The notes: generated by a model not told the origin, from the sequence alone. DNA of 60,613 nucleotides from Pseudomonadota bacterium (GCA_052035915.1 JBPOHE010000007.1:1-60613), one strand, 5' to 3'; numbered from the stretch's first letter, positions 17,690 to 55,064 are shown. Numbers and translations: made by a program.

Positions 17690-17932
17690 TCAGCGCGGCC
17701 GTTCGCGCCCCGCTTCCACCGGCTTGGACCAGAGCGCCTCACGCATCTGTAACTCCCCCGATTGCAGCCGCCGCGCCAGGGCCTCGGTATCGATGCGGCG
17801 CCAGCCGCCCACCGGGGCCATCTCTTCCTGACCGCTGGCGAGAAACAGCCCAATGGCGATCAGGTTGGCGAGAACGAAGCCGAGAAACCTGAATTCGCGC
17901 GGGCGGAGATGGCGCCAGAGAAGAGCTTTCAT
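17690..17932 (-). CDS. Small single-TM protein, translationally coupled to upstream giant gene
   Basis: An 80-aa ORF whose start overlaps the stop of 17929-21621 by 4 nt. It has a hydrophobic segment FLGFVLANLIAIGLFLA. Confidence 0.35.
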   Translation of the reverse strand: MKALLWRHLRPREFRFLGFVLANLIAIGLFLASGQEEMAPVGGWRRIDTEALARRLQSGELQMREALWSKPVEAGRERPR

Positions 17933-20900: not shown

Positions 20901-21621
20901 ACCTCAGCGCCTCCAGCCTCGGCTCCAACCAGGAACTCAGGGGGGTGAAGCCCAGGGCGAGTCCCATCGTCAGCACCAGAGCCAATCCCAGCCGCCGCCA
21001 GCCGCCGCTCCCCAAGGGCCAGGCCGTCAACCCCAATAAGAGCGCCACCACCCCCAGGGTGCGCCAGGTCCCCAGCCATTCGACAAAGACGAAGGTGAAC
21101 AGAAGCCCTCCCAGCAGCGCCCCGATGGCCTCGAAGATATAGAGGCCGGAAACCGCGCCCAGGGTGCCGGGGAGATCCTGATCCGCCTGCCGATCCGGAC
21201 GCAGACCCCGCGCCGCCAAGGGAAAGGCGAGACCGATCAGGATACCGGCGGGCGCCACCACCAGGGCGATGGCGACGAACACCTGTCCGAGAGGGATGAG
21301 TTCGGTCGGCGAGACATCCAGCAACAGCCGCACCCCCCGGGTCACCAGGATCTGCCCGGCGAGCACCAGCGGCAATAACAACAGCGTCCCGCTCAACACC
21401 GGCAGCGGCTGCCGCACCCAGTCCCGCTCCCGCCAATACACCACCAGCGCCGAACCGACGGCGATCCAGAACAACCAACTGCCGTAGAAGGCCCCCAGGG
21501 TGACCTCGTTGCCATAGAACACCACCAGGCACTCGCGGATGAGCATCGCCTGGCTGAGCTGGGAATAGACCCCGAGCACCAAGAGGGTCAGAAAGAGATT
21601 GTGTTGCCTGCGATGGACCAT
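17929..21621 (-). CDS. Giant polytopic fusion protein: spermidine-synthase-like domain, FMN_bind domain and NosR/NapH-like 4Fe-4S polyferredoxin membrane domain
   Basis: N-terminal multi-TM region. Spermidine synthase fold LLLFGGSAGGLVEALLRYPVERIDLIEQD...DPRVRLVFMDGRRFL...YDLVLVLRDDPSS...FTLEFY...TPEGVFCT. A further TM block. FMN_bind-like region GYAGPIDLLVSFDRQGRLRGVRYLGSNETPAYV. C-terminal CGYVCPFGALQEF, CRYFCPFGAFVALG and CIHCNRC. Start trimmed to the ATG after GGGGAGGGGAT. Confidence 0.75.
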   Translation of the reverse strand: MVHRRQHNLFLTLLVLGVYSQLSQAMLIRECLVVFYGNEVTLGAFYGSWLFWIAVGSALVVYWRERDWVRQPLPVLSGTLLLLPLVLAGQILVTRGVRLLLDVSPTELIPLGQVFVAIALVVAPAGILIGLAFPLAARGLRPDRQADQDLPGTLGAVSGLYIFEAIGALLGGLLFTFVFVEWLGTWRTLGVVALLLGLTAWPLGSGGWRRLGLALVLTMGLALGFTPLSSWLEPRLEALRFATLQPALQWVDAVETRYGHLALGRTGDQFSLVADGRIGESFPAQREADQEAAYVYSQAEAPKRLLLFGGSAGGLVEALLRYPVERIDLIEQDQLAFERMRPHLPEVTQAALKDPRVRLVFMDGRRFLKEPREPSPYDLVLVLRDDPSSAHGNRYFTLEFYRRIQHLMTPEGVFCTAVSSASNYLGREVKSYSASVYHSLKPVWPFIAIAPGDQHLYCAAALAERVTEDAWELSRRYLVVPLDEHRFPATSFHNLLDPGRIAYVRSQLEQEEAEINTDARPLTYYLNMLLWGKFTASALVTWLESARALGPWPYLVPLGVMVWLLMLKSALAGAPRRRTRRWAAILALAVQGLIAMAVQLCLLFAYQAHLGFVFSRIALLNGLFMTGLVIGAGVFGRSLPRRRRPGLALIGLMLVIAAGCAALPAGFEFLDGLGAGAQEAVYLGLCGLAGLVTGAGFPLGVHLAHLDTEETVQSSGLIEAADSLGGALGGLLTGALMVPLLGVAGTAWVLAMMALLVCVPLLFAEYAPERLPALVARGGRAFPYQGLSWGLGFLVLTSFVLMLLNRAAQPGPQLHFDDVTLARLSGSASFELRERPFPHYLGQGGEAGETVSLATRAVAGDIRGYAGPIDLLVSFDRQGRLRGVRYLGSNETPAYVAGIDTWLERLAGHSLTEPPLSLQRLDGLSGATVSSRAALETINQAARLAGREVFGSSFAPQAEIETAPAWLSPGFLTSLALLLIFFPVYLSGSEPARLLFQAATLLVLGLWLNTLVTEIDLVNLSQGRLSDLATNPLRWLLLGFVGLTALLFGQVWCGYVCPFGALQEFISRLGRWLRLRSYPERTLESRLRYLKFLLLALVLLGVWIGGEEIWATFNPMQHCFGGHWRGWMGGVIAVSLLGSLFYYRFWCRYFCPFGAFVALGNKIALLRRFAPQRRIEHCDLGVQEALDIDCIHCNRCLTARDTRLRPRKPSEPALGQEHPVIPPEAYTRRP

Positions 21622-21728
21622 GATCCCCTCCCCTTGCGGGAAAGTATGGCCCGTTCCGGCGGCTCTGGAAGAGACCGCGGGCCGGGAGGCTCCGTTCATG
21701 GCAAGCCTGTCGAACCACTCGTGGATCG

Positions 21729-38518: not shown

Positions 38519-39337
38519 GGCCGATCTCCTCTATGAATGATGGATCTACAATATTTATTGTATACAATAATATCGGCGAATGAAAATAGAGATTCGGTCC
38601 TTTATGGGCATTGATTTCTAGCTTGAGGTAAAAAATCCGCAGATCGGGCCATGACCGGTCTTACTTTTCATGATGGCTGTCTGTCGCCTGGATCAAACCG
38701 GTATCAAGGCGGAACCTATCGGCGGTGTTGCTCGCATGAGGGCCGCCAGGATCCCGCACTCTAGGATCCAAGCCTAAAGAGTCGGGGTGCCAAATGATCC
38801 TGGAGATACCAGAGTCTTGACAGAGAGGACAAACCGCCATACTCCAACTTCATTTTTCGCTCGCAACCAAAAGCCATCCATAGTGAACACCCGGGTCATT
38901 ATCTGCACCGACCCTGGGTTATCTGTGTCTATGACAGCGTTTCTCAGCCGGAACCGACACCTTGGAGGGCACGACACAATAGGTTCAGGCCTCCCCCGCC
39001 TGTCGAGGCGGCGCGGCCATGACTCGATATGGAGCAAATGATGGTGAAGAATGGAATCTCAATCGGCGCTGTTTCTGGGGTTATCGCATGACAGGCGGCC
39101 TGTCTCGAAGTCCTTCTGGTGAGATATCCCCGAGACCTCGTCCAGCGGATCCGGCCGGAGACAGACAGAAAACCTTCCGGACCGCCTCGAGCTGGATCAT
39201 GGCAACCACCCTCTCGCTTCTGTTACAGTGTTTATCGGAAGCGAGATACGCCAGCCAAGGGCACCTCACCGCTGTTACGGGCTTCCAGCCTCAGTCTTTC
39301 CGCACAGATATCCCTTCGCCGAGTGGAGACGTTTAGC

Positions 39338-39790
39338 ATGTTTGGTTTCAAGGCCGCCGAATCCTATCAAAGCGAGCATTGCCTGTTGAAGAATGTGGGT
39401 GTCGCCTCATTCAACAAACAGCACCTCCGTCTCGCCAGTTATGCCGTGGAGTTCAACCAGATCGCCGAACAGCTCAAAGGCCGATCGCCGCGGCCCGAGG
39501 AATGGAAACAGATCGACGCCCTGTTCAGTCGCATCTCCATCTTCGTGGCGACGCACTTTCGCGAAGAAGAAGACATGATGGAAACCCATGCCTACCCAGG
39601 GTTTCCCGAACATAAACGCCAGCATGACCGATTCGTCGAAGAATTGGCGCGGATACAATCCCAAATCAACAACAGGAACGCGGATTTCAGGGGCCGCCTG
39701 GGCTCCCTGTTATGGGATTGGCTATACAAACATATCAACGAGACGGACTATCAGTATCGGGAATTCTTTCGCGAGAAAGGCGTTTCCTGA
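39338..39790 (+). CDS. Bacteriohemerythrin
   Basis: HF..EE..M....YP....H...H..F....DWLYKHI gives the hemerythrin His/Glu/Asp ligand pattern. Start trimmed to the ATG after GGAGA. Confidence 0.8.
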   Translation: MFGFKAAESYQSEHCLLKNVGVASFNKQHLRLASYAVEFNQIAEQLKGRSPRPEEWKQIDALFSRISIFVATHFREEEDMMETHAYPGFPEHKRQHDRFVEELARIQSQINNRNADFRGRLGSLLWDWLYKHINETDYQYREFFREKGVS

Positions 39791-39817: not shown

Positions 39818-40144
39818 ATGAAGATCGGCAACCGGCTCGGCATCGGCGTTATGGTCTGTCTTTTGGCGACCGCCCAGATGGAAGCAGGAGCCCCGGCAAG
39901 CGCGGCCTCCACCCAGGAGGTATTGAGCCCCTCCCCTGGCGAGATCTCGCTTCAGTCAGGCTCCCTGCCCTCATCGCCACCCACGACCGGTCTGCCGAGT
40001 GAACGGGGACCAGGTGTCAATCCTCCCAAGACCCTGACCAGCTTTTTTCTCATCGGCATCGTGCTCAACCTGTTGCTGGTGATCCTGGTGGGATCCTGGG
40101 CCTACAAACGTCTTCGCAAACCTCGAAGGCCGAACAATCCGTGA
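39818..40144 (+). CDS. Small secreted/anchored protein (signal peptide plus C-terminal TM)
   Basis: MKIGNRLGIGVMVCLLATAQMEAG... followed by a Pro/Ser-rich stretch, then a TM helix and a basic tail. Confidence 0.35.
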   Translation: MKIGNRLGIGVMVCLLATAQMEAGAPASAASTQEVLSPSPGEISLQSGSLPSSPPTTGLPSERGPGVNPPKTLTSFFLIGIVLNLLLVILVGSWAYKRLRKPRRPNNP

Positions 40145-40776
40145 AACCAACGACGCTTCCGATCGGTACCCTGGCCGGGTTTCTACTCTGGGTTGGATTG
40201 CTGGGAGCCGCCCTGTTCTGGTGGAGTTCGGTAAGCCGACCCATCTCTCCTGAATTGAAACAGGTGCTGCGTAGCCAACCCCGGCTCTTGCAAGGCTTCT
40301 CCCTGGTTGATCAATACCAAAGACCCTTTACCGATGCCAATCTGCGGGGGAAATGGACCTTCCTGTTTTTCGGCTACACCTATTGTCCGGATATCTGCCC
40401 CACCACCCTCGGGACGCTCAAACAGAGCCTCGATCTGTTGCGTAAGACGCCCCAGGACGCGGACGATCTCCAGGTAGCCTTCGTATCCGTGGATCCGGAG
40501 CGCGACCGCACCGATGTATTGCGGAACTACATGGCCTATTTCGATAAAACCTTTATCGGTCTCACCGGACAACGCCAACAGATAGACAATCTGGTGGCCC
40601 AGACGGGGGCGGGATATATCAAGGAAGCGGAACAGACGCCAGGGAATTATTTGATCAGTCACAGCTCTTCGCTGTTTCTCATCAACCCGACCGGACAGCT
40701 GGTGGCGGTTTTCCCGCCACCACTCTATCCGGACTCGATCGCTTCACTCTACCGGGAGCTACGGGCCCATTATTGA
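40141..40776 (+). CDS. SCO1/SenC copper chaperone
   Basis: FLFFGYTYCPDICPTTL is the CxxxC motif of a thioredoxin-like SCO fold. Confidence 0.85.
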   Translation: MKPTTLPIGTLAGFLLWVGLLGAALFWWSSVSRPISPELKQVLRSQPRLLQGFSLVDQYQRPFTDANLRGKWTFLFFGYTYCPDICPTTLGTLKQSLDLLRKTPQDADDLQVAFVSVDPERDRTDVLRNYMAYFDKTFIGLTGQRQQIDNLVAQTGAGYIKEAEQTPGNYLISHSSSLFLINPTGQLVAVFPPPLYPDSIASLYRELRAHY

Positions 40777-40797
40777 TTCGCGCCCGGACTGATACTC

Positions 40798-41262
40798 TCA
40801 GTGGTGCCTGTGCTCGTGAGAATCTTCAGCACCTTTGCGGACTTCCACCATGAGGGGGATCGGGCGGCCCTCCTTGAACTCCAACTCCAGCGGGACAGTA
40901 TCACCCGCGACCAGGGCCTTTTGGGGCCGCATCAACATAAAATGATTACCACCCGGCTCGAACACCACCGTTTCGCCTGGGGGGATACGGATCTCATCCA
41001 GATGGAACATCTGTGCCATGTCATTCTGGATCCTTGTCCCATGCAACATGACATGACCAAAGAGCGGGCTGCTGGCACCGGTCAATATCCGCATGCCCTG
41101 ACCGGTATTCTGTATCTTCATATAAGCGGCCAGGGCCTCTGCTGTTGGGGGAGCTTCGCGTATCCATGGGTCCTGGATCCGAAGCGCGGCCTCTTCGGCC
41201 AGGAGCGGCGTCAGACTGGCCGCCATGACGATTCCAGCCAGAGCCCGAACCAAGGTGTTCAT
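40798..41262 (-). CDS. Periplasmic copper chaperone PCu(A)C (DUF461)
   Basis: Signal peptide. HVMLHGTRIQNDMAQM (H-x-M-x-M type Cu(I) motif). His-rich C-terminus. Confidence 0.8.
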   Translation of the reverse strand: MNTLVRALAGIVMAASLTPLLAEEAALRIQDPWIREAPPTAEALAAYMKIQNTGQGMRILTGASSPLFGHVMLHGTRIQNDMAQMFHLDEIRIPPGETVVFEPGGNHFMLMRPQKALVAGDTVPLELEFKEGRPIPLMVEVRKGAEDSHEHRHH

Positions 41263-41408
41263 CTATTCATCTCCTGTTTTCATTGCCGCGGCAAAGCGGT
41301 TTCGCTATCACACAAACACAGCCAGAGGTTCGCCCAAACCTTCAACAAGGGTTTTTCTTTCTGGCCACCAGAAGCCTCTTGGATGGCGGCTACGACGAGA
41401 GAAGGGTT

Positions 41409-41825
41409 ATGGACAAGATAAGTCTGCTTCCACCACTCCAGGCGACGCTGAATATCCTGGCCACCGCACTCATGATCGCCGCCTATTATGCCATTCGCCG
41501 CAACCACCCATCCGCTCATCGGCTAGGCATGATCGGCGCCTTGATTACCTCGATCCTCTTCCTCGGCTCCTATCTCATCTATCATCATGAAGTCGGCTAT
41601 GTGCCCTTCACCGGTCAAGGGATCATGCGTCCTCTCTATTTCACTATTCTGTTCACCCATATCGCCACCGCCGCGGCCATCGTCCCCTTGGTGCTCATCA
41701 CCCTGTTTCACGCCCTGCGGGGACATACCCAGCAACATCGACGGATCGCCGCCTGGACCTTGCCGCTGTGGTTGTATACCTCCATCACCGGCGTCATGGT
41801 CTATATCCTGGTGTTTCGGCTTTAG
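41409..41825 (+). CDS. DUF420 membrane protein (oxidase-associated)
   Basis: A 4-TM protein with the HHE motif LIYHHEVGY. RBS GAGAAGGG. Confidence 0.7.
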   Translation: MDKISLLPPLQATLNILATALMIAAYYAIRRNHPSAHRLGMIGALITSILFLGSYLIYHHEVGYVPFTGQGIMRPLYFTILFTHIATAAAIVPLVLITLFHALRGHTQQHRRIAAWTLPLWLYTSITGVMVYILVFRL

Positions 41826-42295: not shown

Positions 42296-42481
42296 TCAGT
42301 TCCGCAGCAGAAAGTGCAAGGCCTGGAAACTGGTCAGGGCCAAGACGAGGATGATCAGGAAAAACACCAGGCTGCGGTTTGGCAGCAAGGCGCCGCGTCG
42401 ACGCTCGATCAGATTGAGGATCCAGTCCGACAGGGCGTAGAGCAGCACCGCCACGACTGTGTAGGCGAGCATCTCCAGCAT
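42296..42481 (-). CDS. Small 2-TM membrane protein
   Basis: 61 aa, downstream of the HCO-like gene on the same strand. Confidence 0.3.
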   Translation of the reverse strand: MLEMLAYTVVAVLLYALSDWILNLIERRRGALLPNRSLVFFLIILVLALTSFQALHFLLRN

Positions 42482-42503
42482 GGGGTCGATCTCTGTGGGT
42501 TGG

Positions 42504-43886
42504 TCAGTTTCCGGATTTTCCAGGCCACATCGCCTTGAAGCAGATGATGAGAAACAGCAGACCGCCGATGATGGCAATGAGGCCGCCAAGCCCCATCAAT
42601 CCCATGCCGAGGGTCTCCTGCAAGGTATGCAGCACCTGGGCGCTACCGGCGGTTTTGCGCTGTACCCCATAGCCGCCCGACCAGGCCAGACCGAGCACAT
42701 GGAGCAACTGCCCACTGCCGTAAATGATAGGCTGCCAGCGCACCATCCAGCCCTCCGGGCGGCGAAACCCAAGCCGCGGGAGCAGATGATAGGTCACCCC
42801 CATATAGGCCAGGGTGACGCTGACGATGGACCCATGGTAGTGGGCAGGCACCGTGACATTGGCGCCACTGATCAAGAAACCGATGATCCCGCCGGCGCCG
42901 AAGAGGATGATGGAAAACCAGAGCGCGTTGCGTTCCGGTGCCTGTTCCACTGGCGAACGCCCCGCCCGCGCCAGGGCCCAAAGAATGGCCAGTCCTATCG
43001 GCAGACTGGAGAGACCACCGCCGTACTGCATGAGCCAGGTGAGCCCAAGCATGTGGTAGGCCGAACCGATCTCGTACCTCAGGTACAGGGGCAGGATCAG
43101 GAGCACGGGCGCCGCGCCCAGGCCCAGTATCAGGATGGCGACCCGCGGGCTCAGCGGTGGTCGGGCCTGGGAGACCCAGGCCAGCCACAACCAGGCGACC
43201 AACATCAACTGGGTATGGGTGAACTGAATGGCATGGCCGCCACCCCAGAAAAGGACCTCGTAATATTGGGCACCGATCAAGGAGGACGGAGTCCCCTTAT
43301 AGGAGCCCGCCAAGGCCAGCAGGGCGATCAAAGCGGCGACTTGTCCGGTGATCAGGCCAAACCCCAGCGTCTTCTCTCCCGGACCAGCCATTGCCATGGA
43401 AGAGCGGCTGAACAGGGAATGCAGCACCAGGATCAGGAAACCAAGACCGAACAACCCGAGTCCGACGAAAAAGACCGGTGCCTGCAACACCGGCACATAG
43501 TTGTTCATCAAGGGACCACCGGCCCCGACGAATGGCGAGATCGAAATCACCCCGGCCCCGGCCACGGCCAGATAGAGGGCCCCACGACCGCAGGCCCGGC
43601 AGCGGTCGTTCAGGTTCAGACTCCACAACACCCCCGCAAAGGCCAGGAACCACACCAGTACGGTCAGATCCACATGCACCACCAAGGCGGTATGGAAAAA
43701 ATCCACCCAGGGGATGAGATCCTGAATCTTGGGTGTCCGTGACAAGACGATGAGAATAGTGAACACACCGCCGACCACCAGGGAGCCCAGGGCCAGCCAC
43801 AGCCAACCTATGGCCAGGGAACGAGGCTCCCCGGTGGGAACGCGGAGCACGAAGGCCCCATCAATGGCATCTGTTTGTTGGTTCAT
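42504..43886 (-). CDS. Divergent heme-copper-oxidase subunit I-like 12-TM protein (NorB/NnrS-like?)
   Basis: 12 TM helices with conserved His in TM2 (HTALVVHVDL), LFWGGGHAIQFTH (compare LFWFFGHPEVY) and HYHGSIV in place of the HH CuB pair. Confidence 0.5.
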   Translation of the reverse strand: MNQQTDAIDGAFVLRVPTGEPRSLAIGWLWLALGSLVVGGVFTILIVLSRTPKIQDLIPWVDFFHTALVVHVDLTVLVWFLAFAGVLWSLNLNDRCRACGRGALYLAVAGAGVISISPFVGAGGPLMNNYVPVLQAPVFFVGLGLFGLGFLILVLHSLFSRSSMAMAGPGEKTLGFGLITGQVAALIALLALAGSYKGTPSSLIGAQYYEVLFWGGGHAIQFTHTQLMLVAWLWLAWVSQARPPLSPRVAILILGLGAAPVLLILPLYLRYEIGSAYHMLGLTWLMQYGGGLSSLPIGLAILWALARAGRSPVEQAPERNALWFSIILFGAGGIIGFLISGANVTVPAHYHGSIVSVTLAYMGVTYHLLPRLGFRRPEGWMVRWQPIIYGSGQLLHVLGLAWSGGYGVQRKTAGSAQVLHTLQETLGMGLMGLGGLIAIIGGLLFLIICFKAMWPGKSGN

Positions 43887-44383
43887 CGGAACAAGAATCC
43901 GTTTTCTGGGTTGAAGTCAATGACCAGGAGTTTTCCCACGAGCAGATCGGCCTGGTGTTCGGCGCTGTGGGTGAAGCCCTCGACCCGGCTGTTGTCGTTC
44001 ATCCGCACTTGAAAGGAATGCCGGCCCGCCGCTACCCGCAGGCTGCGAAAGATATCCACCGAGCCATCCTCGAACAATCCGGGTGACTTGGCAACCACCC
44101 GCAACAGGGGTTTCCCATCCATGAATAGCTCGACCTGAATGGGGGAGCGGGCGCGAGGACAATCGGTCGGTTTGCGCATGTTCGGCGGTAGTTTCGCCAA
44201 CTCCTCCGCCGTCAGGGTGCGACAGGGTTCCCGGGGCTGACCCGCATGGCCGAAGGCAAGGGTCACCTGCGCCTGGTCTCCTTCGAGATGGCGATAGGGC
44301 GGTGCGACGGAGAAATACCCCACCACGGCCATAAAGATGAAGTAATTCAGCGCCTGCAAGGGATAACGCCACCAACTAGACAT
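43883..44383 (-). CDS. Hypothetical periplasmic protein with N-terminal TM anchor
   Basis: 166 aa. The start overlaps the upstream stop by 8 nt (coupled). Confidence 0.45.
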   Translation of the reverse strand: MSSWWRYPLQALNYFIFMAVVGYFSVAPPYRHLEGDQAQVTLAFGHAGQPREPCRTLTAEELAKLPPNMRKPTDCPRARSPIQVELFMDGKPLLRVVAKSPGLFEDGSVDIFRSLRVAAGRHSFQVRMNDNSRVEGFTHSAEHQADLLVGKLLVIDFNPENGFLFR

Positions 44384-45995
44384 GAGACTCTCCCTGGCGC
44401 TCCGGCGATGGCTCCTGGGCCTTGAGTTCGCGCAATGAGTCGCGGAAGGCATCGAGTTCGCGTTTGAGCCAAGCCCCATCGGACTCGGACGCCCCCTCCA
44501 TCCGCCAACGCCGCGGATCGACACGGTTGCGGAGCACAGGTTTGCGCATACCGGCGAGGCGCTTGCCCAACCATCTGTTGCCGAACCGGAAATAGCAATC
44601 CGCCGCGCGGCAACCGGAGACCAGAACGCCATCGGCCCCTTTCTTCAGCCCGTATTCGATCAGGGATGGGGGGACCATGCCGCTGCAAAAGAGGCTGAGG
44701 CCAACCGTGTCCGGGCCGTTGAAGCGGGTAACATCGAAGCCGTGTTCGCAGCCCAGGATCAGGATCCGAATCTCGCCCTGCAATCCGGCCAGGGCGGCGT
44801 CGGTTTGCCGGCGGATGTCGTGCAGCGGGAACTGAGGCATGTCAATGCCGGTTTTCAAGACCTGATCGGCGCGGCGTAGCGGATTGGATGACGGACAGGA
44901 CCCCATGCAGATACCGCAGGCGGCACATAACTGAGGGGATACCACCACCTCGTACTCCCAATGGGAGTTGTCGGTACGTTTTTGCAGCGTGATGGCGTCG
45001 AAGGGGCAGTCATCGAAGCACTGACCGCAGCCATTGCAGTGGTTGAGATCGACCACCGCCGCCGGCCCGGTGCGCTTGCGCGGCAGCCAGGGCATGAGCA
45101 TGAGCAACAGGGTGACGCTCGTGGTCAGGAGCCAGGTCTCCCCGGCCGTCCAATAATCCAGCAAGGGATAGACATTGAGATAGAACCAGTCCAGATGCAG
45201 GGTGGCGGGAACCCGGCTGAGGTCCGCCGGTTCGTGACTCACCGCCGGCATGACCAATGACAAGGCCAGCAAGCCGATGAAGCTGCCGATCGCCAGCCCC
45301 CGGGGCGGGTTGATGCTGACATGGGAGAGCCGCCGTACATGAAACCAGAGCATGAACACCAGGAACATGGGTTGTCCCAGGAGATGGAGAAAACCCATGA
45401 GGATGAAAAAGCGATCGTTCAGGTGGCCTTCGAGAAAATTGCGTGTCATGGCCTCGGGAAAGATGGGCACCGCGTCCATGAGCCGGGAGGAACCGATGGC
45501 GACATACTGGGCCAGCAGATCCCACACCAGCCAGTAGCCGGTGATCCCCAGCAGGATGATCATCCACAGGGTCGGGATGCCGGTAAACCAGGAGTACCAG
45601 CGGAAACCGCGATAACGGTCGAGGGCGAACTCGCGGAACAGATGCAGCAGGATGGTGACCACGGCGGCGTCCGAGGCATAGCGATGCAGGCTGCGCATCA
45701 CCCCCCCGGCGTACCACTGTCCATGGGTGATCTGCTGCACCGAGGCGTAGGCGCCATGGATGCTGCTATTGAAAAAGACGAAAAGATAGAGGCCACTGAT
45801 CAGCACCACCCACAAAAAGAAAAAGGTCAGGGTTCCCAGGTGATAGAGGGGGTTCCAGGCGGGGGTGAAGGAAAGATTGAACCAGTCTTCGAGGGCCAGA
45901 TAGCCCCGCTTGATGAGATTGAAGGGTTTCAAGGCGGTATCCTCGCGGGGTACGGCTGGGGGGATCGCGGTCGTCTTGTTATCGCACAACCTCAT
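44376..45995 (-). CDS. Fusion protein: cytochrome b-like membrane domain, 2x[4Fe-4S] ferredoxin domain and MvhD/FlpD-like domain
   Basis: N-terminal cytochrome b/b6-like helices (WYAGGVMRSLHRYASDAAVVTILLHLF...). CNGCGQCFDDCP and CAACGICMGSCP clusters. C-terminal ILILGCEHG...LFCSGMV...GCRAADCYF, typical of the methyl-viologen-reducing hydrogenase delta subunit. Confidence 0.7.
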   Translation of the reverse strand: MRLCDNKTTAIPPAVPREDTALKPFNLIKRGYLALEDWFNLSFTPAWNPLYHLGTLTFFFLWVVLISGLYLFVFFNSSIHGAYASVQQITHGQWYAGGVMRSLHRYASDAAVVTILLHLFREFALDRYRGFRWYSWFTGIPTLWMIILLGITGYWLVWDLLAQYVAIGSSRLMDAVPIFPEAMTRNFLEGHLNDRFFILMGFLHLLGQPMFLVFMLWFHVRRLSHVSINPPRGLAIGSFIGLLALSLVMPAVSHEPADLSRVPATLHLDWFYLNVYPLLDYWTAGETWLLTTSVTLLLMLMPWLPRKRTGPAAVVDLNHCNGCGQCFDDCPFDAITLQKRTDNSHWEYEVVVSPQLCAACGICMGSCPSSNPLRRADQVLKTGIDMPQFPLHDIRRQTDAALAGLQGEIRILILGCEHGFDVTRFNGPDTVGLSLFCSGMVPPSLIEYGLKKGADGVLVSGCRAADCYFRFGNRWLGKRLAGMRKPVLRNRVDPRRWRMEGASESDGAWLKRELDAFRDSLRELKAQEPSPERQGESHV

Positions 45996-46016: not shown

Positions 46017-46850
46017 TCAATGCCCGGGCAGTCCTGGGCCGCGACGCCATTCCCGGACGACAAACCAAGCCGCCAAAATAAGGATGAAGCCGCCAATGAT
46101 CAGGCCAATGAACAGCGACAGATCCACATAATAGGCATCGCGGCTGGGATCGTAGGTGGTGCAGAAGAAACGGATGCGATTGAGAAGACTAGCCAGGAAG
46201 GGCTGGCCCGGCTTGGGCTGCCCAAGCACTAATTCCTTGAGCGGTTCCACCAACAGCGGGGTCTCGAACACCTCGCCATAGACCTGACGATAGATGCGCC
46301 CATCGGCGTCGATGACCGTGGCCTGGATGATATGGTCGAAGCCGCGCGGGGAATCCACATAGGTGAATCCCAGCTCCCGCATCAGAGCCTCCGCCGTGGC
46401 GCGATCAGCGCTCAAAAGCAGCCAATCCGCCCCGGCGATGCCCTGGTTCCTGGCGAACTGGCGCATGGATTCCGGGCTGTCGTGCAGGCTGTCGAAGCCC
46501 AGGGTGGCGACACGAAAACTCTCTTGGCCCAGGGCCTCCCTGGCTTTGGCGACTACTTTGGCCAGATGCTGGGTGGTCAGGGGACAGACATGGTAGCAAC
46601 TGGTATAGACCAAGCTGAGCACCAGGGGCTTGCCCTTCAGGCTTGACAAGGAAAGTCGGTCTTCCGCACCTGTAGTGAAGACGTAGTCCCCCAAGGATCG
46701 GCCGATCGCCTGCTGGCTAGCTTCCAGGGCTCGCTTGCTATCGAATTTGGTGGTGGTTTCCTGATGTCCGGTCCTCGACCAAGCCGGGAAAAGTATCGCG
46801 AGCCAGGCGAAGATCAGCGCGCAGGCGAGGAGAGGGAGCCGATACCTCAT
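46017..46850 (-). CDS. SCO1/SenC-like thioredoxin-fold protein with C-terminal TM
   Basis: SLVYTSCYHVCPLT is the CxxxC motif. Start trimmed to MRYRLPLL. Confidence 0.7.
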   Translation of the reverse strand: MRYRLPLLACALIFAWLAILFPAWSRTGHQETTTKFDSKRALEASQQAIGRSLGDYVFTTGAEDRLSLSSLKGKPLVLSLVYTSCYHVCPLTTQHLAKVVAKAREALGQESFRVATLGFDSLHDSPESMRQFARNQGIAGADWLLLSADRATAEALMRELGFTYVDSPRGFDHIIQATVIDADGRIYRQVYGEVFETPLLVEPLKELVLGQPKPGQPFLASLLNRIRFFCTTYDPSRDAYYVDLSLFIGLIIGGFILILAAWFVVREWRRGPGLPGH

Positions 46851-46879: not shown

Positions 46880-47737
46880 TCAAGACACCAGCCAGGCGTC
46901 CAGGACAGCGCTTGTCAATAGACAGGTCAGTTGCACCAGGGAAGCAAAAAAACAACTCATCGCGGTCTTGGCGGTGGGATCCCTGACCAGTTGGAGATTT
47001 TTCTGTAGAAAATAGCCCCCACCGATCAGGGCGCCGGCCAGATAGATCCAACCGAGACCAAAGAAAAAGGGAAGAATGGAAAATGTCACCAGGACCAGGG
47101 TGTTGAGCAATACGGCCCGCGCTGCCCGCGCATTGCCCACCACCACCGGCAACATCGGAACCCCCGCAGCGACATAATCGTCGCGCTGGGCAATGGCCAG
47201 ACTCCAGAAATGGGAGGGGGTCCAGAAAAACAACACGATGGCGAGAAGGATAGGTACCGGACTGAGACTCGGGTCAACCGCCGCAGCCCCGGCGAGTACC
47301 GCAAAACTGCCGGATGCCCCACCGATGACGATGTTGAGCCAAGTCCGGCGTTTCAGCCAGACTGTATAGACGATCGCATAGAAAAACGCCCCGAGAAAGA
47401 TATAGAGGGCGGCCACGCCGTTCAGCAGCAGTGCGGCACCCAAAACTCCCATCGCCAGCAGCGCCATGATCAACATCAACCAGAAGGGCGTATGGGAGAA
47501 ACTCCCGGTCACGAAGGGGCGGTTGTGGGTCCGCCGCATCCGACTATCGATATCCAACTCATAATATTGGTTGAAGGCACCGGCACTGGCGGCCGCCATG
47601 AGTACCGTCAGGGCCAGGACAAGGGTGTGCCAGCCGCCAAGAGGTTCTCCCGGAGTCACCACCATGGCCGCAATCGCGGTAAAGGCCATGATGATACCGA
47701 TACGGAGTTTGAACAGATTGGTGAGCTGCTTGAGCAT
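46880..47737 (-). CDS. ctaB: Protoheme IX farnesyltransferase (heme O synthase)
   Basis: A UbiA-family polytopic protein with NQYYELDIDSRMRRTHNRP motif. Start trimmed to MLKQLTN. Confidence 0.85.
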   Translation of the reverse strand: MLKQLTNLFKLRIGIIMAFTAIAAMVVTPGEPLGGWHTLVLALTVLMAAASAGAFNQYYELDIDSRMRRTHNRPFVTGSFSHTPFWLMLIMALLAMGVLGAALLLNGVAALYIFLGAFFYAIVYTVWLKRRTWLNIVIGGASGSFAVLAGAAAVDPSLSPVPILLAIVLFFWTPSHFWSLAIAQRDDYVAAGVPMLPVVVGNARAARAVLLNTLVLVTFSILPFFFGLGWIYLAGALIGGGYFLQKNLQLVRDPTAKTAMSCFFASLVQLTCLLTSAVLDAWLVS

Positions 47738-47858: not shown

Positions 47859-49592
47859 CTATTTGAGTGGCCAGACGGCCGCCAGATAGTTCCAGTTGAT
47901 GAAATAATACAGCACAAAGGACACCAGCAAGACCATGGCGAGGGCAAAAGTACCAGGCGCTTCGAAACCCGCCGAGCCGTGCTGTTCCACCACCGGCCGG
48001 CTGGCCATGGGCAGTTGCTCCGGCTGCTCGAAGGTATAGACAGAAGCCGCAAGCGGCTTGCCGAAGCTCTGCAGCAACCCCGCGGAAGGCTCCAGCTTCT
48101 TGCCGAACACCAGCGAACCCACGGTGACGATGAGGTACATGGCGCCGCCGACCATCGCCAGGAGGGCACCGATTCCGGCGATACCCATCAGCACATAGGC
48201 GGTCCCCGGATACTTGAAGCCCAAAGGATTGCCCGCAAAGCCCATGTCCCAGTGGCGACGGGCCACTCCCAGGGTACCCGCGCCCATGAGGAACAAGGAC
48301 ACGATAGTCATGCCTAGACCGAAGACATAGGGCTGCCATTTCGCCACCGTGGGCAGGATCATCTGGCGACGGAACAAAACCGGGATCAGCAGGTAAGTCA
48401 GGGCCATGAAGGCCAGGGTGGTGCCTATAACGACCGTGGCATGGAAGTGGCCCGGTACATAGATGGTGTTGTGGATGATGATGTTGATCTGCTCGGTACC
48501 CATCACCACACCTGAGATGCCACCCAGGAAACCAAAACCTACCAGCGAGATGAACATGCCCGAGAACACCGGATTATCCCAGGGGGCCTTGCGCAACCAC
48601 TCGAACATACCCTTGGTGAATCCCTTGTGTCGCTGGGCCACCTCGATGGCGCCAGGGACGGTCAGGCCGTGGATCATGCTGGCCAGCACCGCCAGATACA
48701 TGGCATAGCTGGTGTTGAATACCTTCCACTCGGAGCTGATACCCGGATCCACCAGGATGTGGTGGGCGCAGGCCAGTTGCAGGAAGAGGATGTAGAGCAG
48801 ATAGGCCGAACGGCTGACCTTCTCCGACATGGGCCGGGCGCCGAAGACCACACCCGCGATCAGATACCACACGGCCACATGGGCGGCGACGTTGATCTGT
48901 TGGGAGGAGTGCCCGAGGCCCCACCAGATGACCCGGTACATCAGGGCGTCGATGTGGCCGATGTAGCCGATGGACCAGAGGAAGGTCGGGATCAGAATGA
49001 TCGCCCCCGAGGCGATGGTGAAGACGGCGATGATAGCCGCGGTGATGGCGCCGAAGGTCACAAGGGGCACCGAGCCCTGATAGGTGTTCTCATCCTTGGC
49101 GATGACCAGGGTGCCGAAGAACACAAACACAGCGATTAGCGCACCCACGGCGAACAAAATCAACCCGAGATAGAAGGTTGGCTGGGCGGGCATGGGCACA
49201 TAGGAAGTCATCATCACGCTGGAACCGCCCTGGAAGATGGTGACGAGGGTGGTGATGGAGCCTATTACCATGAGCGCGAAGCCGAGCCAAGCCCAGCGTG
49301 GTGTAGCCAGGCGGCAGCGCAACAGGGTCGAGGAGGCGAAATAGAGGATGGCTATTTCGAAAAAGATGATCCAGAAGATGAGCGCGCCGATGCCATGGGC
49401 GGTCAGCACCATATAGAAGGAGTCCGCCGGCAAAAGATGCACCGCCGGCCATCTGGTCAGGGCGACCAGCACCCCGAGCACACCAGAGATCAAGAGGCTC
49501 ACCGCGGCGGCGACCGCGTTGACCTTCATCAGGCTCTCGGCGGACTTATGGAAATACAGCCCTGAGGATGGGCAAACCCGAAACTCTGCCAT
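47859..49592 (-). CDS. Cytochrome c oxidase subunit I (ba3/type-B-like)
   Basis: 12 or more TM helices with the heme-copper His pattern (WGLGHSSQQINVAAHVAVWY...HFHATV). Length 577 aa. Confidence 0.85.
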   Translation of the reverse strand: MAEFRVCPSSGLYFHKSAESLMKVNAVAAAVSLLISGVLGVLVALTRWPAVHLLPADSFYMVLTAHGIGALIFWIIFFEIAILYFASSTLLRCRLATPRWAWLGFALMVIGSITTLVTIFQGGSSVMMTSYVPMPAQPTFYLGLILFAVGALIAVFVFFGTLVIAKDENTYQGSVPLVTFGAITAAIIAVFTIASGAIILIPTFLWSIGYIGHIDALMYRVIWWGLGHSSQQINVAAHVAVWYLIAGVVFGARPMSEKVSRSAYLLYILFLQLACAHHILVDPGISSEWKVFNTSYAMYLAVLASMIHGLTVPGAIEVAQRHKGFTKGMFEWLRKAPWDNPVFSGMFISLVGFGFLGGISGVVMGTEQINIIIHNTIYVPGHFHATVVIGTTLAFMALTYLLIPVLFRRQMILPTVAKWQPYVFGLGMTIVSLFLMGAGTLGVARRHWDMGFAGNPLGFKYPGTAYVLMGIAGIGALLAMVGGAMYLIVTVGSLVFGKKLEPSAGLLQSFGKPLAASVYTFEQPEQLPMASRPVVEQHGSAGFEAPGTFALAMVLLVSFVLYYFINWNYLAAVWPLK

Positions 49593-49598
49593 AGATGC

Positions 49599-50135
49599 TT
49601 ACTCCTTGACGTAGATCTTGCCCAGCATGGTGTGGTGCAAGATGCCGCAATATTCGTTACAGACGATGGTGTACTCGCCCGCCTGGTCCGGGGTCACCGT
49701 CATGACCATCTCGTAGCCCGGCAGGACCTGCACATTGATGTTGACGGGTTGCAGGGAGAAGCCGTGCTGCCAATCCATCGACGAAAGATGAAGCCGGTAG
49801 CTCTTGTTCTTTTTCAGTTCAAGCATCGGATACCATTGCCAGAGCCGGCCCAACATATAGACATCGCTGTCCGCGGGTGGAGCGACCACGGGTAACCCCG
49901 CCTCATCTCTCACCTTATGGTCCTTGACCATGGCCTCCACCTTGGCCAGGTGTTTGGCCGGTGTGGTCTGATAGGCCTCGTTGGACAGATTCTGCTTACC
50001 GTAAAGGTGCCAGTAGGGCATCATGAGGAACATGATCAGGCACCAGACTACCGCCAACAGGATCCAGACGATTTCGGTCTTGCCGACCGGTTCTTTCCAC
50101 CAGATGCGTTCGGCCGGTGGTGTAAAGCTGCTCAT
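49599..50135 (-). CDS. Cytochrome c oxidase subunit II (single-TM, CuA)
   Basis: CNEYCGILHHTM is the CuA motif. A 178-aa ba3-type CbaB-like protein. Confidence 0.8.
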   Translation of the reverse strand: MSSFTPPAERIWWKEPVGKTEIVWILLAVVWCLIMFLMMPYWHLYGKQNLSNEAYQTTPAKHLAKVEAMVKDHKVRDEAGLPVVAPPADSDVYMLGRLWQWYPMLELKKNKSYRLHLSSMDWQHGFSLQPVNINVQVLPGYEMVMTVTPDQAGEYTIVCNEYCGILHHTMLGKIYVKE

Positions 50136-50649: not shown

Positions 50650-51702
50650 ATGTCCGTGACCGAAACTGCTGCAAATAGAACGGTTGCCCTCTGGTTGTTG
50701 ATCTGCTGTGCCGCCATCTTCGCCATGGTGGTGCTGGGAGGGGTGACGCGGTTGACGGGCTCCGGGCTCTCCATCGTACGCTGGGAACCCATCACCGGGG
50801 TGCTGCCGCCCCTGAACGAAACCGCCTGGGAACAGGTATTCCAGCTCTATCAGCAATCGCCGGAATATCGGCTGAAGAACCGGGGGATGTCGCTCGAGGG
50901 CTTCAAAACCATCTTCTGGTTCGAATACGCCCACCGCCTGCTCGGCCGGCTGATTGGGGTCATCTTTCTCGTCCCCCTGATCTTTTTCGTGATCCGCAAG
51001 CAGCTGAACCGCTCGCTCATCCCCAAGCTGGTCCTGATGTTCGTGCTCGGTGGGCTGCAGGGCCTGCTCGGCTGGTATATGGTGATGAGCGGACTGGTCA
51101 ATGATCCCCACGTGAGCCAATACCGCCTGACCGCCCACCTCGGGCTCGCCCTTCTCATTTATTCTTATATGTTCTGGGTGGCGTTGGATCTGTTGTTTCC
51201 CGACACCGGTCACATCCAAAAAAGGGGGGCAACGGCAGGCCTGATCGTCTTGCTGGTGTTTCTGACCGCCCTTTCCGGTGGTTTCGTCGCCGGCACCCGG
51301 GCGGGTCTGGCCTACAACACCTTCCCCTTGATGGACGGCCAATGGGTTCCTGGGGGAATGTTCACCCTGACTCCCCTGTGGAGCAACTTGTTCGAGAATG
51401 TCACCACGGTGCAGTTCGACCACCGCCTGCTGGCCACCCTGCTGTTCTTGGTCATCCCGGCGTTCTGGTGGCGCGCCCGCCGACAGCCGCTCGCACCCCG
51501 GGTCCAGATCGGGCTCCATGTCCTGCTCATGACCCTATTCCTACAGCTCGGGCTGGGCATCTCCACGCTGCTGCTCCGGGTGCCGGTGGCCCTGGGAACG
51601 GCGCATCAGGGCGGTGCCGTGTTGTTGCTGACCGCGGCCCTGTTCGTCTGGCATCGAATGCGTCGGGAGCCTCTCCAGCAGCCGATCTCAGGATTTGTCT
51701 AG
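50650..51702 (+). CDS. ctaA: Heme A synthase (COX15/CtaA)
   Basis: VTRLTGSGLSIVRWEP plus 8 TM helices and conserved His pairs. Confidence 0.8.
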   Translation: MSVTETAANRTVALWLLICCAAIFAMVVLGGVTRLTGSGLSIVRWEPITGVLPPLNETAWEQVFQLYQQSPEYRLKNRGMSLEGFKTIFWFEYAHRLLGRLIGVIFLVPLIFFVIRKQLNRSLIPKLVLMFVLGGLQGLLGWYMVMSGLVNDPHVSQYRLTAHLGLALLIYSYMFWVALDLLFPDTGHIQKRGATAGLIVLLVFLTALSGGFVAGTRAGLAYNTFPLMDGQWVPGGMFTLTPLWSNLFENVTTVQFDHRLLATLLFLVIPAFWWRARRQPLAPRVQIGLHVLLMTLFLQLGLGISTLLLRVPVALGTAHQGGAVLLLTAALFVWHRMRREPLQQPISGFV

Positions 51703-52906: not shown

Positions 52907-54688
52907 TCACAACAACCCGGCGTAGTCGGCTATCCCCGGATTGCCTTTTACCCCCACGAGTTTCGGGCTGTTGACTTTGGCCAGCTTCACCTGGCCTTTG
53001 AGGCGGAGATAATCGGCGACCACATCCCACACCGGACGCCCGGGCGCTTGGGAGCCCACGGTGGCCCAGCCGGAGACGATATAGTTTTTCCCCGCCTCGA
53101 CCGGGGTACCGTCGTCCAGGGTCATCTGACTGATGCGCTGGCCCATCTCCCGGCTGGGATCACAGACATAATCCAGCCCCCCGACGCGCACCATATCCCC
53201 ACCCTGCTGGTAATAGGGGTCCGGATTGAACAGGTTGTCGCAGACATCTTCGAGAATGGTCTTGATGTCGGCGCCGGTCATCTCGCGTCGATAGGTTTCC
53301 GGGTAGGTGATACAGGTCTGGTCCAATACCTGTTCCATGGTGATCGCCTGTCCCGGCAGGATGCTGGTACCCCAGCGGAAGCCGGGCGAGAGGGCGATCT
53401 GAGCGTCATTGACCTCCCGCAGGGCATCGCAGATGACCTGGTCGAAAGTGCCGTTGAAGTTCCCCCGTCGATAGAGGGTGGCCTCGGTAACCGCCAGTTT
53501 CTCCTCCAGCCGATCCTTGTAAGGCGCACGCACCTTATCGATATAGGCCTGCATCTCCGGGTCGGCGGGCAGGAGGTTGGAGAACACCGGCAACAGCCGG
53601 TAGCGGAAATCCCGTACCTGTCCGCCCTTCACCTCCAAGTCCATGACGCCGAGAAACTTGCCGTTGGAACCGGCATTGGTCACCAGGGTACGCCCGTTGC
53701 GGTTCTTGATGAGGCTCGGCGCCGGCACACCGTCATGGGTATGGCCGCCGAAGATGACGTCGATACCGCTCACCCGCTCCGCCATCTTGAGGTCGACATC
53801 CATGCCGTTGTGGGAAAGCACCACTATGACTTCGGGTTTTTCCTTCGCCTTGAGCTTGTCGACGACTTCCTGCATGTGCTTGTCTTCGATGCCGAAGGTC
53901 CAATCCGGGATAAAGCGCTGCGGGTTGGCGATGGGGGTATAGGGAAAGGCCTGGCCAATGACGGCCACGCGAACCCCGCCTACCTCCTTGATGGTATAGG
54001 GGCGGAAGGCCTGGCCGCTGTCGCCGTCGAAACCCGCGTATTTGGCGAATTTGTAATCGAAGAGGGCGTCCTCCTTGACCTTGATGTTCTGCGCCACGAA
54101 CTCGGCCTTGAGCTCGGCCAGGTTCTCCATGACCTCCTGGTCCAGATAGGTGAACTCCCAATGGCCGGTCATGACATCCACGCCCAGGAGGTTGCAGGCC
54201 CCTACCATGTCCTTACCCCGGGTCCAATAGGCGGTTCCCGATCCCTGCCAGGTATCGCCGCCGTCCAATAAGAGGGTATTGCCTGGGCCCCTGGCTTCCC
54301 GCAGGCGCTTCACCAGGGTCCGCAGATGGGCGAAGCCACCAACCCGACCATAGCGCTTGGCCGCCTCATCGAAATGGAGATAGGTGAAGGCATGGGCGTC
54401 GAGGCCACCGCCGGTCAGACCATAGTGTTTCAACAGGGCCTCGCCGACCAGATGCGGCGGTTTGCCCAGGGCGGTGCCAACGCCCAGGTTGACATTGGGT
54501 TCCCGGTAATAGACTGGATTCAGCTGGGCATGGGTATCAGTGATATGCAACAGGCTCAGATTACCGAATTTGGGGACATCATAGATGTCGGCCGCCTGGG
54601 TCTTGGCGGCAGCCAAGGACCTGGGCAGGATCCCCGCCGCCCCGGCCATGGCCATCAAGTGGAGAAACTCACGTCTGGAGATACTCAT
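52907..54688 (-). CDS. soxB: Tat-secreted SoxB-like thiosulfohydrolase (metallophosphoesterase/5'-nucleotidase family)
   Basis: Tat signal MSISRREFLHLMAMAGAAG. LHITDTHAQ and LLLDGGDTWQGS metallophos motifs. VMTGHWEF. A 5'-nucleotidase C-terminal domain. Start trimmed to the ATG after GAGGAG. Generic UshA-type nucleotidase cannot be excluded. Confidence 0.65.
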   Translation of the reverse strand: MSISRREFLHLMAMAGAAGILPRSLAAAKTQAADIYDVPKFGNLSLLHITDTHAQLNPVYYREPNVNLGVGTALGKPPHLVGEALLKHYGLTGGGLDAHAFTYLHFDEAAKRYGRVGGFAHLRTLVKRLREARGPGNTLLLDGGDTWQGSGTAYWTRGKDMVGACNLLGVDVMTGHWEFTYLDQEVMENLAELKAEFVAQNIKVKEDALFDYKFAKYAGFDGDSGQAFRPYTIKEVGGVRVAVIGQAFPYTPIANPQRFIPDWTFGIEDKHMQEVVDKLKAKEKPEVIVVLSHNGMDVDLKMAERVSGIDVIFGGHTHDGVPAPSLIKNRNGRTLVTNAGSNGKFLGVMDLEVKGGQVRDFRYRLLPVFSNLLPADPEMQAYIDKVRAPYKDRLEEKLAVTEATLYRRGNFNGTFDQVICDALREVNDAQIALSPGFRWGTSILPGQAITMEQVLDQTCITYPETYRREMTGADIKTILEDVCDNLFNPDPYYQQGGDMVRVGGLDYVCDPSREMGQRISQMTLDDGTPVEAGKNYIVSGWATVGSQAPGRPVWDVVADYLRLKGQVKLAKVNSPKLVGVKGNPGIADYAGLL

Positions 54689-55064
54689 CTTCTTATCGCT
54701 CCTCATAACCATACCGGGGCTTGGTGACGGGTTATCGGGCTGTCGCCGCTTGGAAGCCTGGCTCCTCCTGCCTTCCTGGTGACAACAAGCCGAACCCGGA
54801 TATCGCCAAGTATAAGATGGCACCAGCGGGACAACATCCCAGGTCACCAAGGGTTTTCCCGGATATTCCCTCCTCTCCCCTTTCGCCACGCCGTCCTGCC
54901 CCTGTCCCCGGCCACTGGCTAAGCCGGGGAATGTGTGGAAGGATCCGGGGCGCGCCTGCTGTGAAAGTCCCTGGCCCAACCGGCGGCGGAAGCGGTTCTC
55001 TCGAACCCGGCCACCACAACAGCCAGGCGGCAACGAAACCCAAGGTCAATGAGGAGAGAAGGTC

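Follow-up and report, generated by a model that had tools for sequence, protein, structure and literature searches.

What does a membrane cytochrome b fused to ferredoxin and MvhD domains do beside a protein that resembles subunit I of a haem-copper oxidase (HCO), in the midst of copper and haem assembly genes? The question is raised by positions 42504..45995 of a 60,613-nt stretch of DNA from a Pseudomonadota bacterium (GCA_052035915.1 JBPOHE010000007.1:1-60613; the whole stretch is hereafter the window). A sequence-only reading of this DNA had described two genes there, whereas our reading of the open reading frames (ORFs) filled the interval with three, all on the minus strand: the fusion gene, the gene for a small protein (p167) that had been missed, and the gene for the HCO-like protein (HCOL; Table 1). 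Judged by its ligand residues, HCOL keeps two haem sites and has lost both the CuB/FeB metal site and the catalytic Tyr, and the enzyme encoded upstream is by signature an eNOR-type nitric-oxide reductase (NOR). We tentatively read the region (probability about 0.4) as the distal end of an eNOR-type operon, encoding not a second oxidase but a module for cofactor supply or maturation. HCOL would be a haem-handling or assembly factor, and the cytochrome b fusion would carry electrons from the cytoplasm to the periplasm, an assignment of roles that we hold just as tentatively.

Haem and metal ligands of HCOL

HCOL passed the gathering score of Pfam COX1 (PF00115) weakly (E = 3.9e-11; 42.9 bits against a cut-off of 34.8). 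COX1 alone was returned by Pfam at E ≤ 0.01, no NCBIfam model matched the protein, and a single-sequence search of the PDB gave no match. With a profile of 40 diverse HCOL members, only B-family chains were retrieved from the PDB (Thermus ba3, E = 2e-17; the Aquifex enzyme, E = 1e-11) and no A-family, C-family or NOR (cNOR, qNOR) chain appeared at E ≤ 10, while hhalign paired HCOL with the 577-aa subunit I encoded nearby in the window (probability 99.2, E = 1e-19). The AlphaFold (AF2) model of HCOL (pLDDT 78.7, pTM 0.85) has the 12 helices of the subunit-I fold, and Foldseek aligned it with subunit I of A-, B- and C-family oxidases and of NORs at TM scores of 0.6–0.73 and 12–17% identity. By fold and by its COX1 match, HCOL therefore belongs to the HCO superfamily, in agreement with the 12-transmembrane-helix HCO-like protein previously described on this strand. 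No well-characterized family of hidden Markov models (HMMs) claims it: NnrS was matched in neither Pfam nor NCBIfam, and the NorB-type FeB site (three His and a Glu) is absent.

Ligand positions were compared with those of the neighbouring subunit I. H349-Y350-H351 of HCOL stands opposite the helix-X GHFH, which provides the ligands of both the high-spin and the low-spin haem; H71 stands opposite the helix-II haem ligand (LTAH); WGGGH218 stands opposite the helix-VI WWGLGH; and the helix-VII AHH falls opposite AY277H278. Among the 40 diverse members, H71, H218, Q221, H349 and Y350 are invariant and H351 is found in 38, position 277 is variable (Glu in 18 of the 40) and position 278 is occupied by His and by Phe in 15 members each. 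The ligands expected of a bis-His low-spin haem and of a His-ligated high-spin haem thus appear to be in place. A complete CuB/FeB site would need three His (one on helix VI and two on helix VII), and H218 is the sole invariant one. Helix VI reads GH-A-I-Q-F, with Phe at +4 after H218 (32 of the 40) and Gln at +3, and we found there neither the cross-linked Tyr nor the residue that replaces it in NORs (Gln in eNOR, Asn in sNOR/bNOR, Glu in cNOR/qNOR and Asp in gNOR), with the reservation that the helix-VI register is slightly ambiguous, since one of two HMM alignments sets Q221 opposite Y237. A distal pocket of H218, Q221, E210 and W214 and the propionate-binding pair R410/K411 are strictly conserved across 33–99% identity, and every fusion variant of HCOL (described below) carries the family signature, none of them with the helix-VII His pair. 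Because it fails the metal-site test of the catalytic HCOs and of each NOR family, HCOL is not filed here as an oxidase or a NOR; on these comparisons it is best described as a branch of the B-family lineage that has diverged in function. The sequence-only reading had placed a divergent CuB site, HYH instead of HH, in this protein, but the HYH consists of the helix-X haem ligands and the true helix-VII HH reads Y277-H278, so that the argument from CuB-site spacing rested on the wrong motif.

The family is uncharacterized but widespread. More than 6000 word-filtered relatives were found. Of the representatives in a library clustered at 50% identity, 595 matched HCOL at E ≤ 1e-30, a number that rose to 1458 at E ≤ 1e-3. 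Relatives occur in at least 409 GTDB species genomes, mostly of sulfur-oxidizing Gammaproteobacteria (Chromatiales, Sedimenticolaceae, Beggiatoaceae, Arenicellales and Thiotrichales), with some Rhodocyclaceae or Burkholderiales and one Nitrospirae metagenome-assembled genome among the other hosts.

The cytochrome b fusion and its eNOR-type operon

An MvhD/FlpD domain fused to a membrane cytochrome b is unusual, as had been pointed out, and both the fusion and its architecture were confirmed by Pfam and by homologues of the same build. Cytochrome_B covers residues 46–220 (E = 2.6e-14), Fer4 families cover residues 313–370 (two [4Fe-4S] clusters) and FlpD/MvhD (PF02662) covers residues 434–524 (E = 2.7e-15; 56.9 bits against a cut-off of 22.3), while in NCBIfam residues 312–528 align with the ferredoxin-MvhD tail of HdrA2 (E = 1e-25) and the N terminus resembles ExtP/cytochrome b6. 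All expected cofactor ligands (4 His, 8 + 4 Cys) are invariant among 27 aligned homologues: the haem ligands H104-x13-H118 and H204-x14-H219, which are the four His expected of a bc1/b6f cytochrome b; two CxxCxxCxxxCP motifs (C320/323/326/330 and C357/360/363/367); and, in the MvhD part, the four Cys of a [2Fe-2S] cluster (C416, C437, C462 and C467). At the PEWY position the protein reads LDWF, a PEWY-like motif in which D269-W270 is invariant. The full bc1/b6f set of a PEWY motif with Rieske and cytochrome c1/f partners is not present, no Rieske or cytochrome c1 domain having been found in the Pfam-annotated 21-kb neighbourhood of a related locus (L001) or in the window ORFs scanned; an HdrA-type flavoprotein or [NiFe] hydrogenase was likewise absent from L001 and these ORFs, and such a partner could be encoded elsewhere in the genome. 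Six hydrophobic helices, counted by eye, make up the membrane part, a number that would place the iron–sulfur domains in the cytoplasm.

Relatives of the fusion number 3846 in the databases, the best 120 of them being 510–544 aa long with the same Pfam set, and hundreds of homologues of like length and architecture, with 63–99% identity, came from four independent sources (NCBI, JGI, ENA and Logan). They show that the fusion is not an artefact of assembly, a possibility that the sequence-only reading had allowed for. Because homologues, at 510–525 aa, are shorter than the 539 aa called here, the true start may lie about 15–25 codons downstream of the called one. A sister protein, hereafter FNR-type, joins cytochrome b to plant-type Fer2 [2Fe-2S], FAD and NAD-binding domains (Pfam, L061:218-2155); this architecture also occurs at L099, L103, L112, L118, L139, L141 and other loci, often sharing an eNOR operon with the MvhD-type fusion, and usually adjoins a p167 gene as well.

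In the window, the genes are ordered eNOR-II, eNOR-I, CtaB, SCO1, fusion, p167, HCOL, and the last three form the end of the operon. The SCO1 stop lies 21 nt upstream of the fusion start, the p167 start overlaps the fusion stop by 8 nt (junction CATGTCTAG) and the HCOL start overlaps the p167 stop by 4 nt (ATGA; junction CGATGAAC), from which we take the fusion, p167 and HCOL to be translationally coupled. A promoter and terminator scan gave no promoter-like sites and no usable operon boundaries, and its terminator-like hits were located within Phe-rich membrane-protein genes. One ORF on the plus strand (42480..43742, 420 aa), antisense to HCOL, was treated as a shadow ORF of GC-rich DNA.

Two small proteins accompany the larger ones. 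p167 has one N-terminal transmembrane (TM) helix followed by a beta-sandwich domain, periplasmic to judge from the topology; it matched no known family and no NCBIfam model. No motif for a redox cofactor can be recognized in it, nor does it have the fold of a cupredoxin or a cytochrome. p97, which has neither a Pfam match nor an NCBIfam model, was detected by tblastn in 77 loci, and in 65 of them it is no more than 600 nt away from the 3′ end of HCOL, in either orientation; it is the most faithful neighbour of HCOL and may be its small subunit.

The enzyme at the head of the operon had been described as canonical ba3-type subunits I and II, a label that does not fit subunit I. In its alignment with Thermus thermophilus ba3 (E = 9e-42), the second Q of GHSSQQ stands opposite Tyr237, and GHxxQQ occurs together with AHH and HFH in 72 of the 73 subunit-I homologues that adjoin HCOL in related loci. 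Gln at the position of the cross-linked Tyr is the published eNOR diagnostic (PMC8756737), and here it is combined with the three retained His, with a CuA-type subunit II and with genes for haem A biosynthesis (CtaB in the operon, CtaA divergent from it). The Rhodothermus marinus eNOR has been shown to be a NOR containing haem As, and CtaA is present in many eNOR operons (PMC11214002). By signature, then, the 577-aa and 178-aa proteins are an eNOR-type nitric-oxide reductase; an sNOR was considered and rejected, since sNOR has Asn where Gln stands here. The reported link of the fusion to an HCO-type enzyme and a copper-chaperone cluster held up, in that the fusion is operon-linked to eNOR and to copper and haem assembly genes. 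The group of second SCO1, PCuAC and DUF420 (40141..41825) recurs in related loci. A hemerythrin HHE-domain gene (39335..39790, plus strand) adjoins the cluster and recurs in many related loci; its product may bind O2, NO or iron.

Table 1 Genes of the HCOL region and of the neighbouring eNOR-type cluster in the window.
Feature	Coordinates	Strand	Description
Fusion	44376..45995	-	539 aa as called; bc-type di-haem cytochrome b + 2x[4Fe-4S] ferredoxin + MvhD/FlpD [2Fe-2S]
p167	43883..44383	-	166 aa; between the fusion and HCOL genes
HCOL	42504..43886	-	460 aa; paralogue of HCO subunit I
p97	42296..42481	-	About 61 aa; conserved; two TM helices; motif SDWIL..IE.RRG...VFF.II
eNOR-type subunit II (eNOR-II)	49599..50135	-	178 aa; one TM helix + cupredoxin; complete CuA motif CNEYCGILHHTM; Pfam COX2/Cupredoxin_1, NCBIfam CoxB
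eNOR-type subunit I (eNOR-I)	47859..49592	-	577 aa; B-family-like; GHSSQQ; HH and HFH kept
CtaB, haem O synthase	46880..47737	-	TIGR01473, 262 bits against a cut-off of 210; 285-aa homologue at the same position in L001
SCO1/SenC-type copper chaperone	46017..46850	-	277 aa; Pfam SCO1-SenC
CtaA, haem A synthase	50650..51702	+	Divergent from the operon; Pfam COX15-CtaA, E = 1.4e-108
Second SCO1	40141..40776	+	Pfam SCO1-SenC
PCuAC copper chaperone	40798..41262	-	Pfam PCuAC
DUF420 protein	41283..41825	+	Pfam DUF420

Gene contexts across genomes and competing explanations

To see in what company HCOL is found, we surveyed 50 species loci with at least 7.5 kb of sequence upstream of the HCOL gene. 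Most (35 of the 50) were colinear with the window, with the order eNOR-II, eNOR-I, (CtaB), SCO1, fusion, p167, HCOL (CtaB was undetected in a few). In another 8, HCOL lies beyond CtaA-SCO1 and eNOR-II, eNOR-I, CtaB, SCO1 and the fusion are still together, p167 being detected in 5 of these rearranged loci (some contigs end at the fusion). One locus (L015) has fusion-p167-HCOL and no eNOR within 7.9 kb upstream. The remaining 6 have HCOL alone: five are Beggiatoaceae loci with unrelated neighbours, and at the sixth, from the Nitrospirae (L077), HCOL follows an A-family oxidase (LFWFYAHPAVY, Tyr present) and CtaB. As in the window, CtaA, DUF420, the second SCO1, PCuAC and the hemerythrin-like gene recur near HCOL. 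A second survey, seeded from distant members of the family (30–43% identity), returned eNOR operons again, and many operons with the FNR-type sister added to or replacing the MvhD-type fusion. It also returned loci at which a divergent CtaA is the only partner of HCOL (L086-L089, L109, L129 and L155) and loci at which it stands with A-type oxidase genes or CtaB (L091, L108, L148 and L150); an A-family oxidase together with CtaB adjoins HCOL at L077, L091 and L108.

Natural fusions add further associations. Cytochrome b is fused to HCOL on two contigs (P0243/P0513), with LDWF kept and the iron–sulfur domains absent, and HCOL is fused once to haem O synthase (CtaB; P0379, TIGR01473 at 250 bits), after an HCO subunit pair. 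Several independent clusters contain HCOL fused to a TPR domain, with a 13th hydrophobic helix after a basic linker that would place the TPR domain in the periplasm. In all three HCOL::TPR loci examined (L084:4233-6239, L167:2686-4653 and L168:8001-10136), the gene directly follows ResB and CcsA, a pair that matures cytochrome c in System II; a thioredoxin-like gene comes next in one of the three, and multihaem cytochromes precede the gene in one.

These contexts underlie the maturation reading. The only constant companions of HCOL across clades are haem O/A synthases, haem-A-type oxidases and ResB-CcsA, from which we infer that HCOL handles haem, and such neighbours (CtaA, CtaB, A-type oxidases and ResB-CcsA) indicate a part in haem handling or in assembly and not in respiration; the richness of the window cluster in assembly genes (CtaA, CtaB, two SCO1, PCuAC and DUF420) counts in the same direction. 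HCOL would bind a low-spin haem through two His, H71 and H351, and a high-spin haem through H349, and would hold, reduce or pass haem B, O or A in the membrane to maturing haem proteins. With p97 it would serve haem-A-type oxidases, and in its TPR-fused form it would serve System II cytochrome c maturation.

The fusion and p167 would together form a transmembrane electron conduit. A cytoplasmic donor would bind to the MvhD [2Fe-2S] domain or, in the FNR-type sister, NAD(P)H would supply electrons via FAD and the [2Fe-2S] cluster, and the electrons would run from the iron–sulfur clusters through haem bH and haem bL to the periplasmic face, where they would reach HCOL, p167 or eNOR, either keeping cofactors reduced during assembly or feeding the enzyme. 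The outward direction is suggested by the FNR-type sister, which is laid out like the NAD(P)H-oxidizing component of a reductase; by bioenergetic principles, flow from inside to outside is downhill and helped by the membrane potential. That cytochrome b and HCOL are joined in one protein on two contigs speaks for a direct transfer of electrons between the two, and the separate proteins of the window may be in physical contact.

Several observations weigh against this reading. The proximity of assembly genes could simply reflect operons shared with oxidase structural genes; the conserved distal pocket (H218, Q221, E210 and W214) and R410/K411 fit an enzyme equally well; cytochrome b::HCOL without iron–sulfur domains looks like a quinol-oxidizing enzyme; the HCOL::CtaB fusion comes from a single contig; and HCOL stands alone in the Beggiatoaceae loci. 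Moreover, the fusion and p167 were seen only with eNOR, yet are optional among eNOR operons, a pattern seen more typically in electron-donor modules than in assembly factors. A bolder reading, which we doubt, would make HCOL the founder of a copper-less, HCO-derived enzyme class acting on haem, as a reductase or insertase or in an oxygen-sparing route to haem A, powered from the cytoplasm through bc-type cytochrome b, iron–sulfur and MvhD or FNR modules and shared by the maturation of haem-A oxidases and eNOR and by System II.

Foremost among the alternatives is a catalytic side branch, in which the fusion, with or without p167, would feed HCOL from cytoplasmic donors or quinol, and HCOL, with a high-spin haem and a globin-like distal His/Gln pocket, would need no second metal to reduce or detoxify NO, O2 or some other small oxidant. 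The haem ligands, the pocket residues (H218/Q221/E210/W214) and R410/K411 are all invariant across 33–99% identity, cytochrome b::HCOL keeps the PEWY-like LDWF quinol-site motif, and HCOL is linked to a NOR operon and to a hemerythrin-like gene, all of which speak for such a role. However, the known O2- and NO-reducing HCOs all have a three-ligand CuB/FeB site (PMC11214002), of which HCOL keeps one invariant His. No subunit II partner that would support a catalytic role is evident, and HCOL is also found with A-type O2 reductases, with CtaA alone and in ResB-CcsA operons, none of which is linked to NO. We consider this explanation unlikely. The sequence-only reading had suggested an alternative electron input or an NO/oxygen-reducing side branch; a membrane electron conduit is still plausible, whereas a canonical side branch is unlikely because HCOL is without two of the three CuB/FeB His and the Tyr.

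Electron input to eNOR itself comes next, again as an unlikely explanation. The fusion and p167 would carry cytoplasmic electrons to the CuA subunit, making NO reduction independent of bc1 and cytochrome c, and HCOL would be an unrelated assembly scaffold. Gene order speaks for such an arrangement: when HCOL moves, the fusion and p167 stay with eNOR-II, eNOR-I, (CtaB) and SCO1 (L041, L047, L048, L055, L062, L073, L076, L080, L095, L102, L104 and L106), and they were seen only with eNOR and never at A-type oxidase loci. The MvhD and FNR variants also occur together in one operon, as alternative donors might, and NAD(P)H-fed NO detoxification enzymes are common. Less easily accommodated are p167, which has no recognizable redox motif and neither a cupredoxin nor a cytochrome fold, the locus (L015) that has fusion-p167-HCOL with no eNOR within 7.9 kb upstream, and the cytochrome b::HCOL fusion, which ties cytochrome b to HCOL and not to eNOR.

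Reverse electron transport, with the cytochrome b–iron–sulfur proteins acting as quinol:NAD(P)+ or quinol:ferredoxin oxidoreductases driven by NO reduction, has been proposed for Ferrigenium (bioRxiv 10.64898/2026.01.22.701106) and would suit hosts that are largely lithoautotrophs in need of low-potential reductant, the window itself holding a SoxB-like gene. We think it very improbable, since electrons passing from a periplasm-side haem to cytoplasmic iron–sulfur clusters or FAD would move uphill in potential and be opposed by the membrane potential, and the cluster contains no coupling device such as a Rieske protein or a bifurcating flavin module. Finally, decaying relics or a fusion created in assembly, for which the weak Pfam score of HCOL is the single point, can be set aside: homologues run to thousands, mean column identity is 72% and the ligands are invariant, the gene junctions overlap start to stop, and the proteins are detected in the Ferrigenium proteome.

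Known systems, the host and significance

Related proteins have lately been named in one other bacterium. A May 2026 preprint on Ferrigenium straubiae describes a COX1-like gene as an 'eNOR scaffold protein of unknown function' and two cytochrome b fusions as 'Cytbc1-like proteins' 1 and 2, in an operon of eNOR II, eNOR I, haem o synthase, Sco1, cytochrome b-iron-sulfur, a hypothetical protein and the COX1-like scaffold, followed by cytochrome b-ferredoxin/F420-hydrogenase-delta (bioRxiv 10.64898/2026.01.22.701106). Its proteome contains all of these homologues, and the values listed there (28.0 for HCOL versus 31.6 for eNOR I/II) make HCOL appear the less abundant. From annotations and gene order, the scaffold and the Cytbc1-like proteins are most likely orthologues of HCOL and the fusion, with the difference that Ferrigenium carries the FNR-type variant first and the window has the MvhD type only. 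The preprint gives names and proteome and transcript levels, and holds no ligand analysis and no function; it is the sole literature that we found on this operon. Literature searches that combined MvhD, cytochrome b and haem-copper oxidases, or that looked for CuB-less subunit I homologues, found nothing relevant.

Set beside the B-family HCOs and their NOR offshoots (T. thermophilus ba3 and R. marinus eNOR), HCOL shares the 12-helix fold, the helix-II and helix-X haem His, the helix-VI W-x-x-G-H and the propionate R/K pair, and with the neighbouring eNOR it also shares Gln three residues after the helix-VI His (GHAIQF versus GHSSQQ). It differs from both in several respects: the helix-VII His-His pair is missing, Phe takes the place of Tyr or Gln at +4 from the helix-VI His, a partner subunit with CuA or cytochrome c is not evident and, at 460 aa, extra C-terminal helices are lacking. 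HCOL also occurs beside CtaA/CtaB and ResB-CcsA where there are no oxidase structural genes. The fusion resembles HdrED, DsrMK and QmoC in that a di-haem membrane cytochrome b is wired to cytoplasmic iron–sulfur clusters, and HdrA2 in its alignable 2x[4Fe-4S] and MvhD tail. It departs from these systems in having a cytochrome b of the bc1/b6 type (H-x13-H, H-x14-H, PEWY-like) rather than the NarI type, in its iron–sulfur domains, with no CCG/HdrD domain among them, and in its link to an HCO operon, with no HdrA or hydrogenase in the neighbourhood.

Layout also likens the FNR-type sister to the NOX/FRE enzymes, which carry electrons outwards and in which cytoplasmic NAD(P)H/FAD domains are joined to a two-haem transmembrane cytochrome b; the two are not homologous, the sister having a bc-type cytochrome b, an extra iron–sulfur step and no Ferric_reduct domain reported by Pfam. 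For the TPR-fused HCOL, the nearest likeness is System I of cytochrome c maturation. There the membrane protein CcmF carries a b haem and has been proposed to reduce haem on its way through, and CcmI serves as a TPR chaperone in the periplasm. HCOL::TPR has a TPR domain that would also be periplasmic, and it sits in ResB-CcsA operons, but fold and ancestry differ, HCOL::TPR has no WWD domain, and the likeness in role comes from gene context only.

A SoxB-like protein (52907..55033, minus strand; Metallophos and 5′-nucleotidase C-terminal domains) and the taxa of the related loci suggest a sulfur-oxidizing gammaproteobacterium. Elsewhere, a 1256-aa ORF (17929..21699, minus strand) combines spermine/spermidine-synthase-like, FMN_bind and Fer4_5 domains, and AT skew is unusually strong around it (0.285 at 18–20 kb). 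A low-GC island (10001..14102; GC 0.43–0.51 versus about 0.6 elsewhere), with overlapping minus-strand ORFs (12041..13159 and 13152..14102) that have no Pfam match, may have been acquired horizontally; a phage-type integrase is encoded at 193..1242. Also present on the minus strand are a 710-aa ORF (6293..8425) with DinB_2, FGE-sulfatase and methyltransferase domains, which we take to be the domain layout of OvoA-type thiol-histidine synthases, a 591-aa fusion of Memo-like and AMMECR1 proteins (14862..16637), and caspase-domain (Peptidase_C14) and OmpA-domain genes side by side (3102..5611).

A sizeable part of environmental N2O is attributed to enzymes of the eNOR type, and HCOL may bear on how they obtain haem As and their non-haem metal, and haem A when oxygen is scarce. 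It may also bear on the electron donor to bacterial haem A synthase and on haem reduction in System II, and a family with its haems kept, its copper site lost and such gene contexts is a concrete candidate for these roles. Annotation is affected as well: HCOL goes under the names 'cytochrome c oxidase subunit I' or 'cbb3-type', the neighbouring eNOR can easily be mistaken for ba3, and both errors distort metabolic predictions for sulfur-oxidizing bacteria. HCOL also offers a natural case of a catalytic scaffold put to new use.

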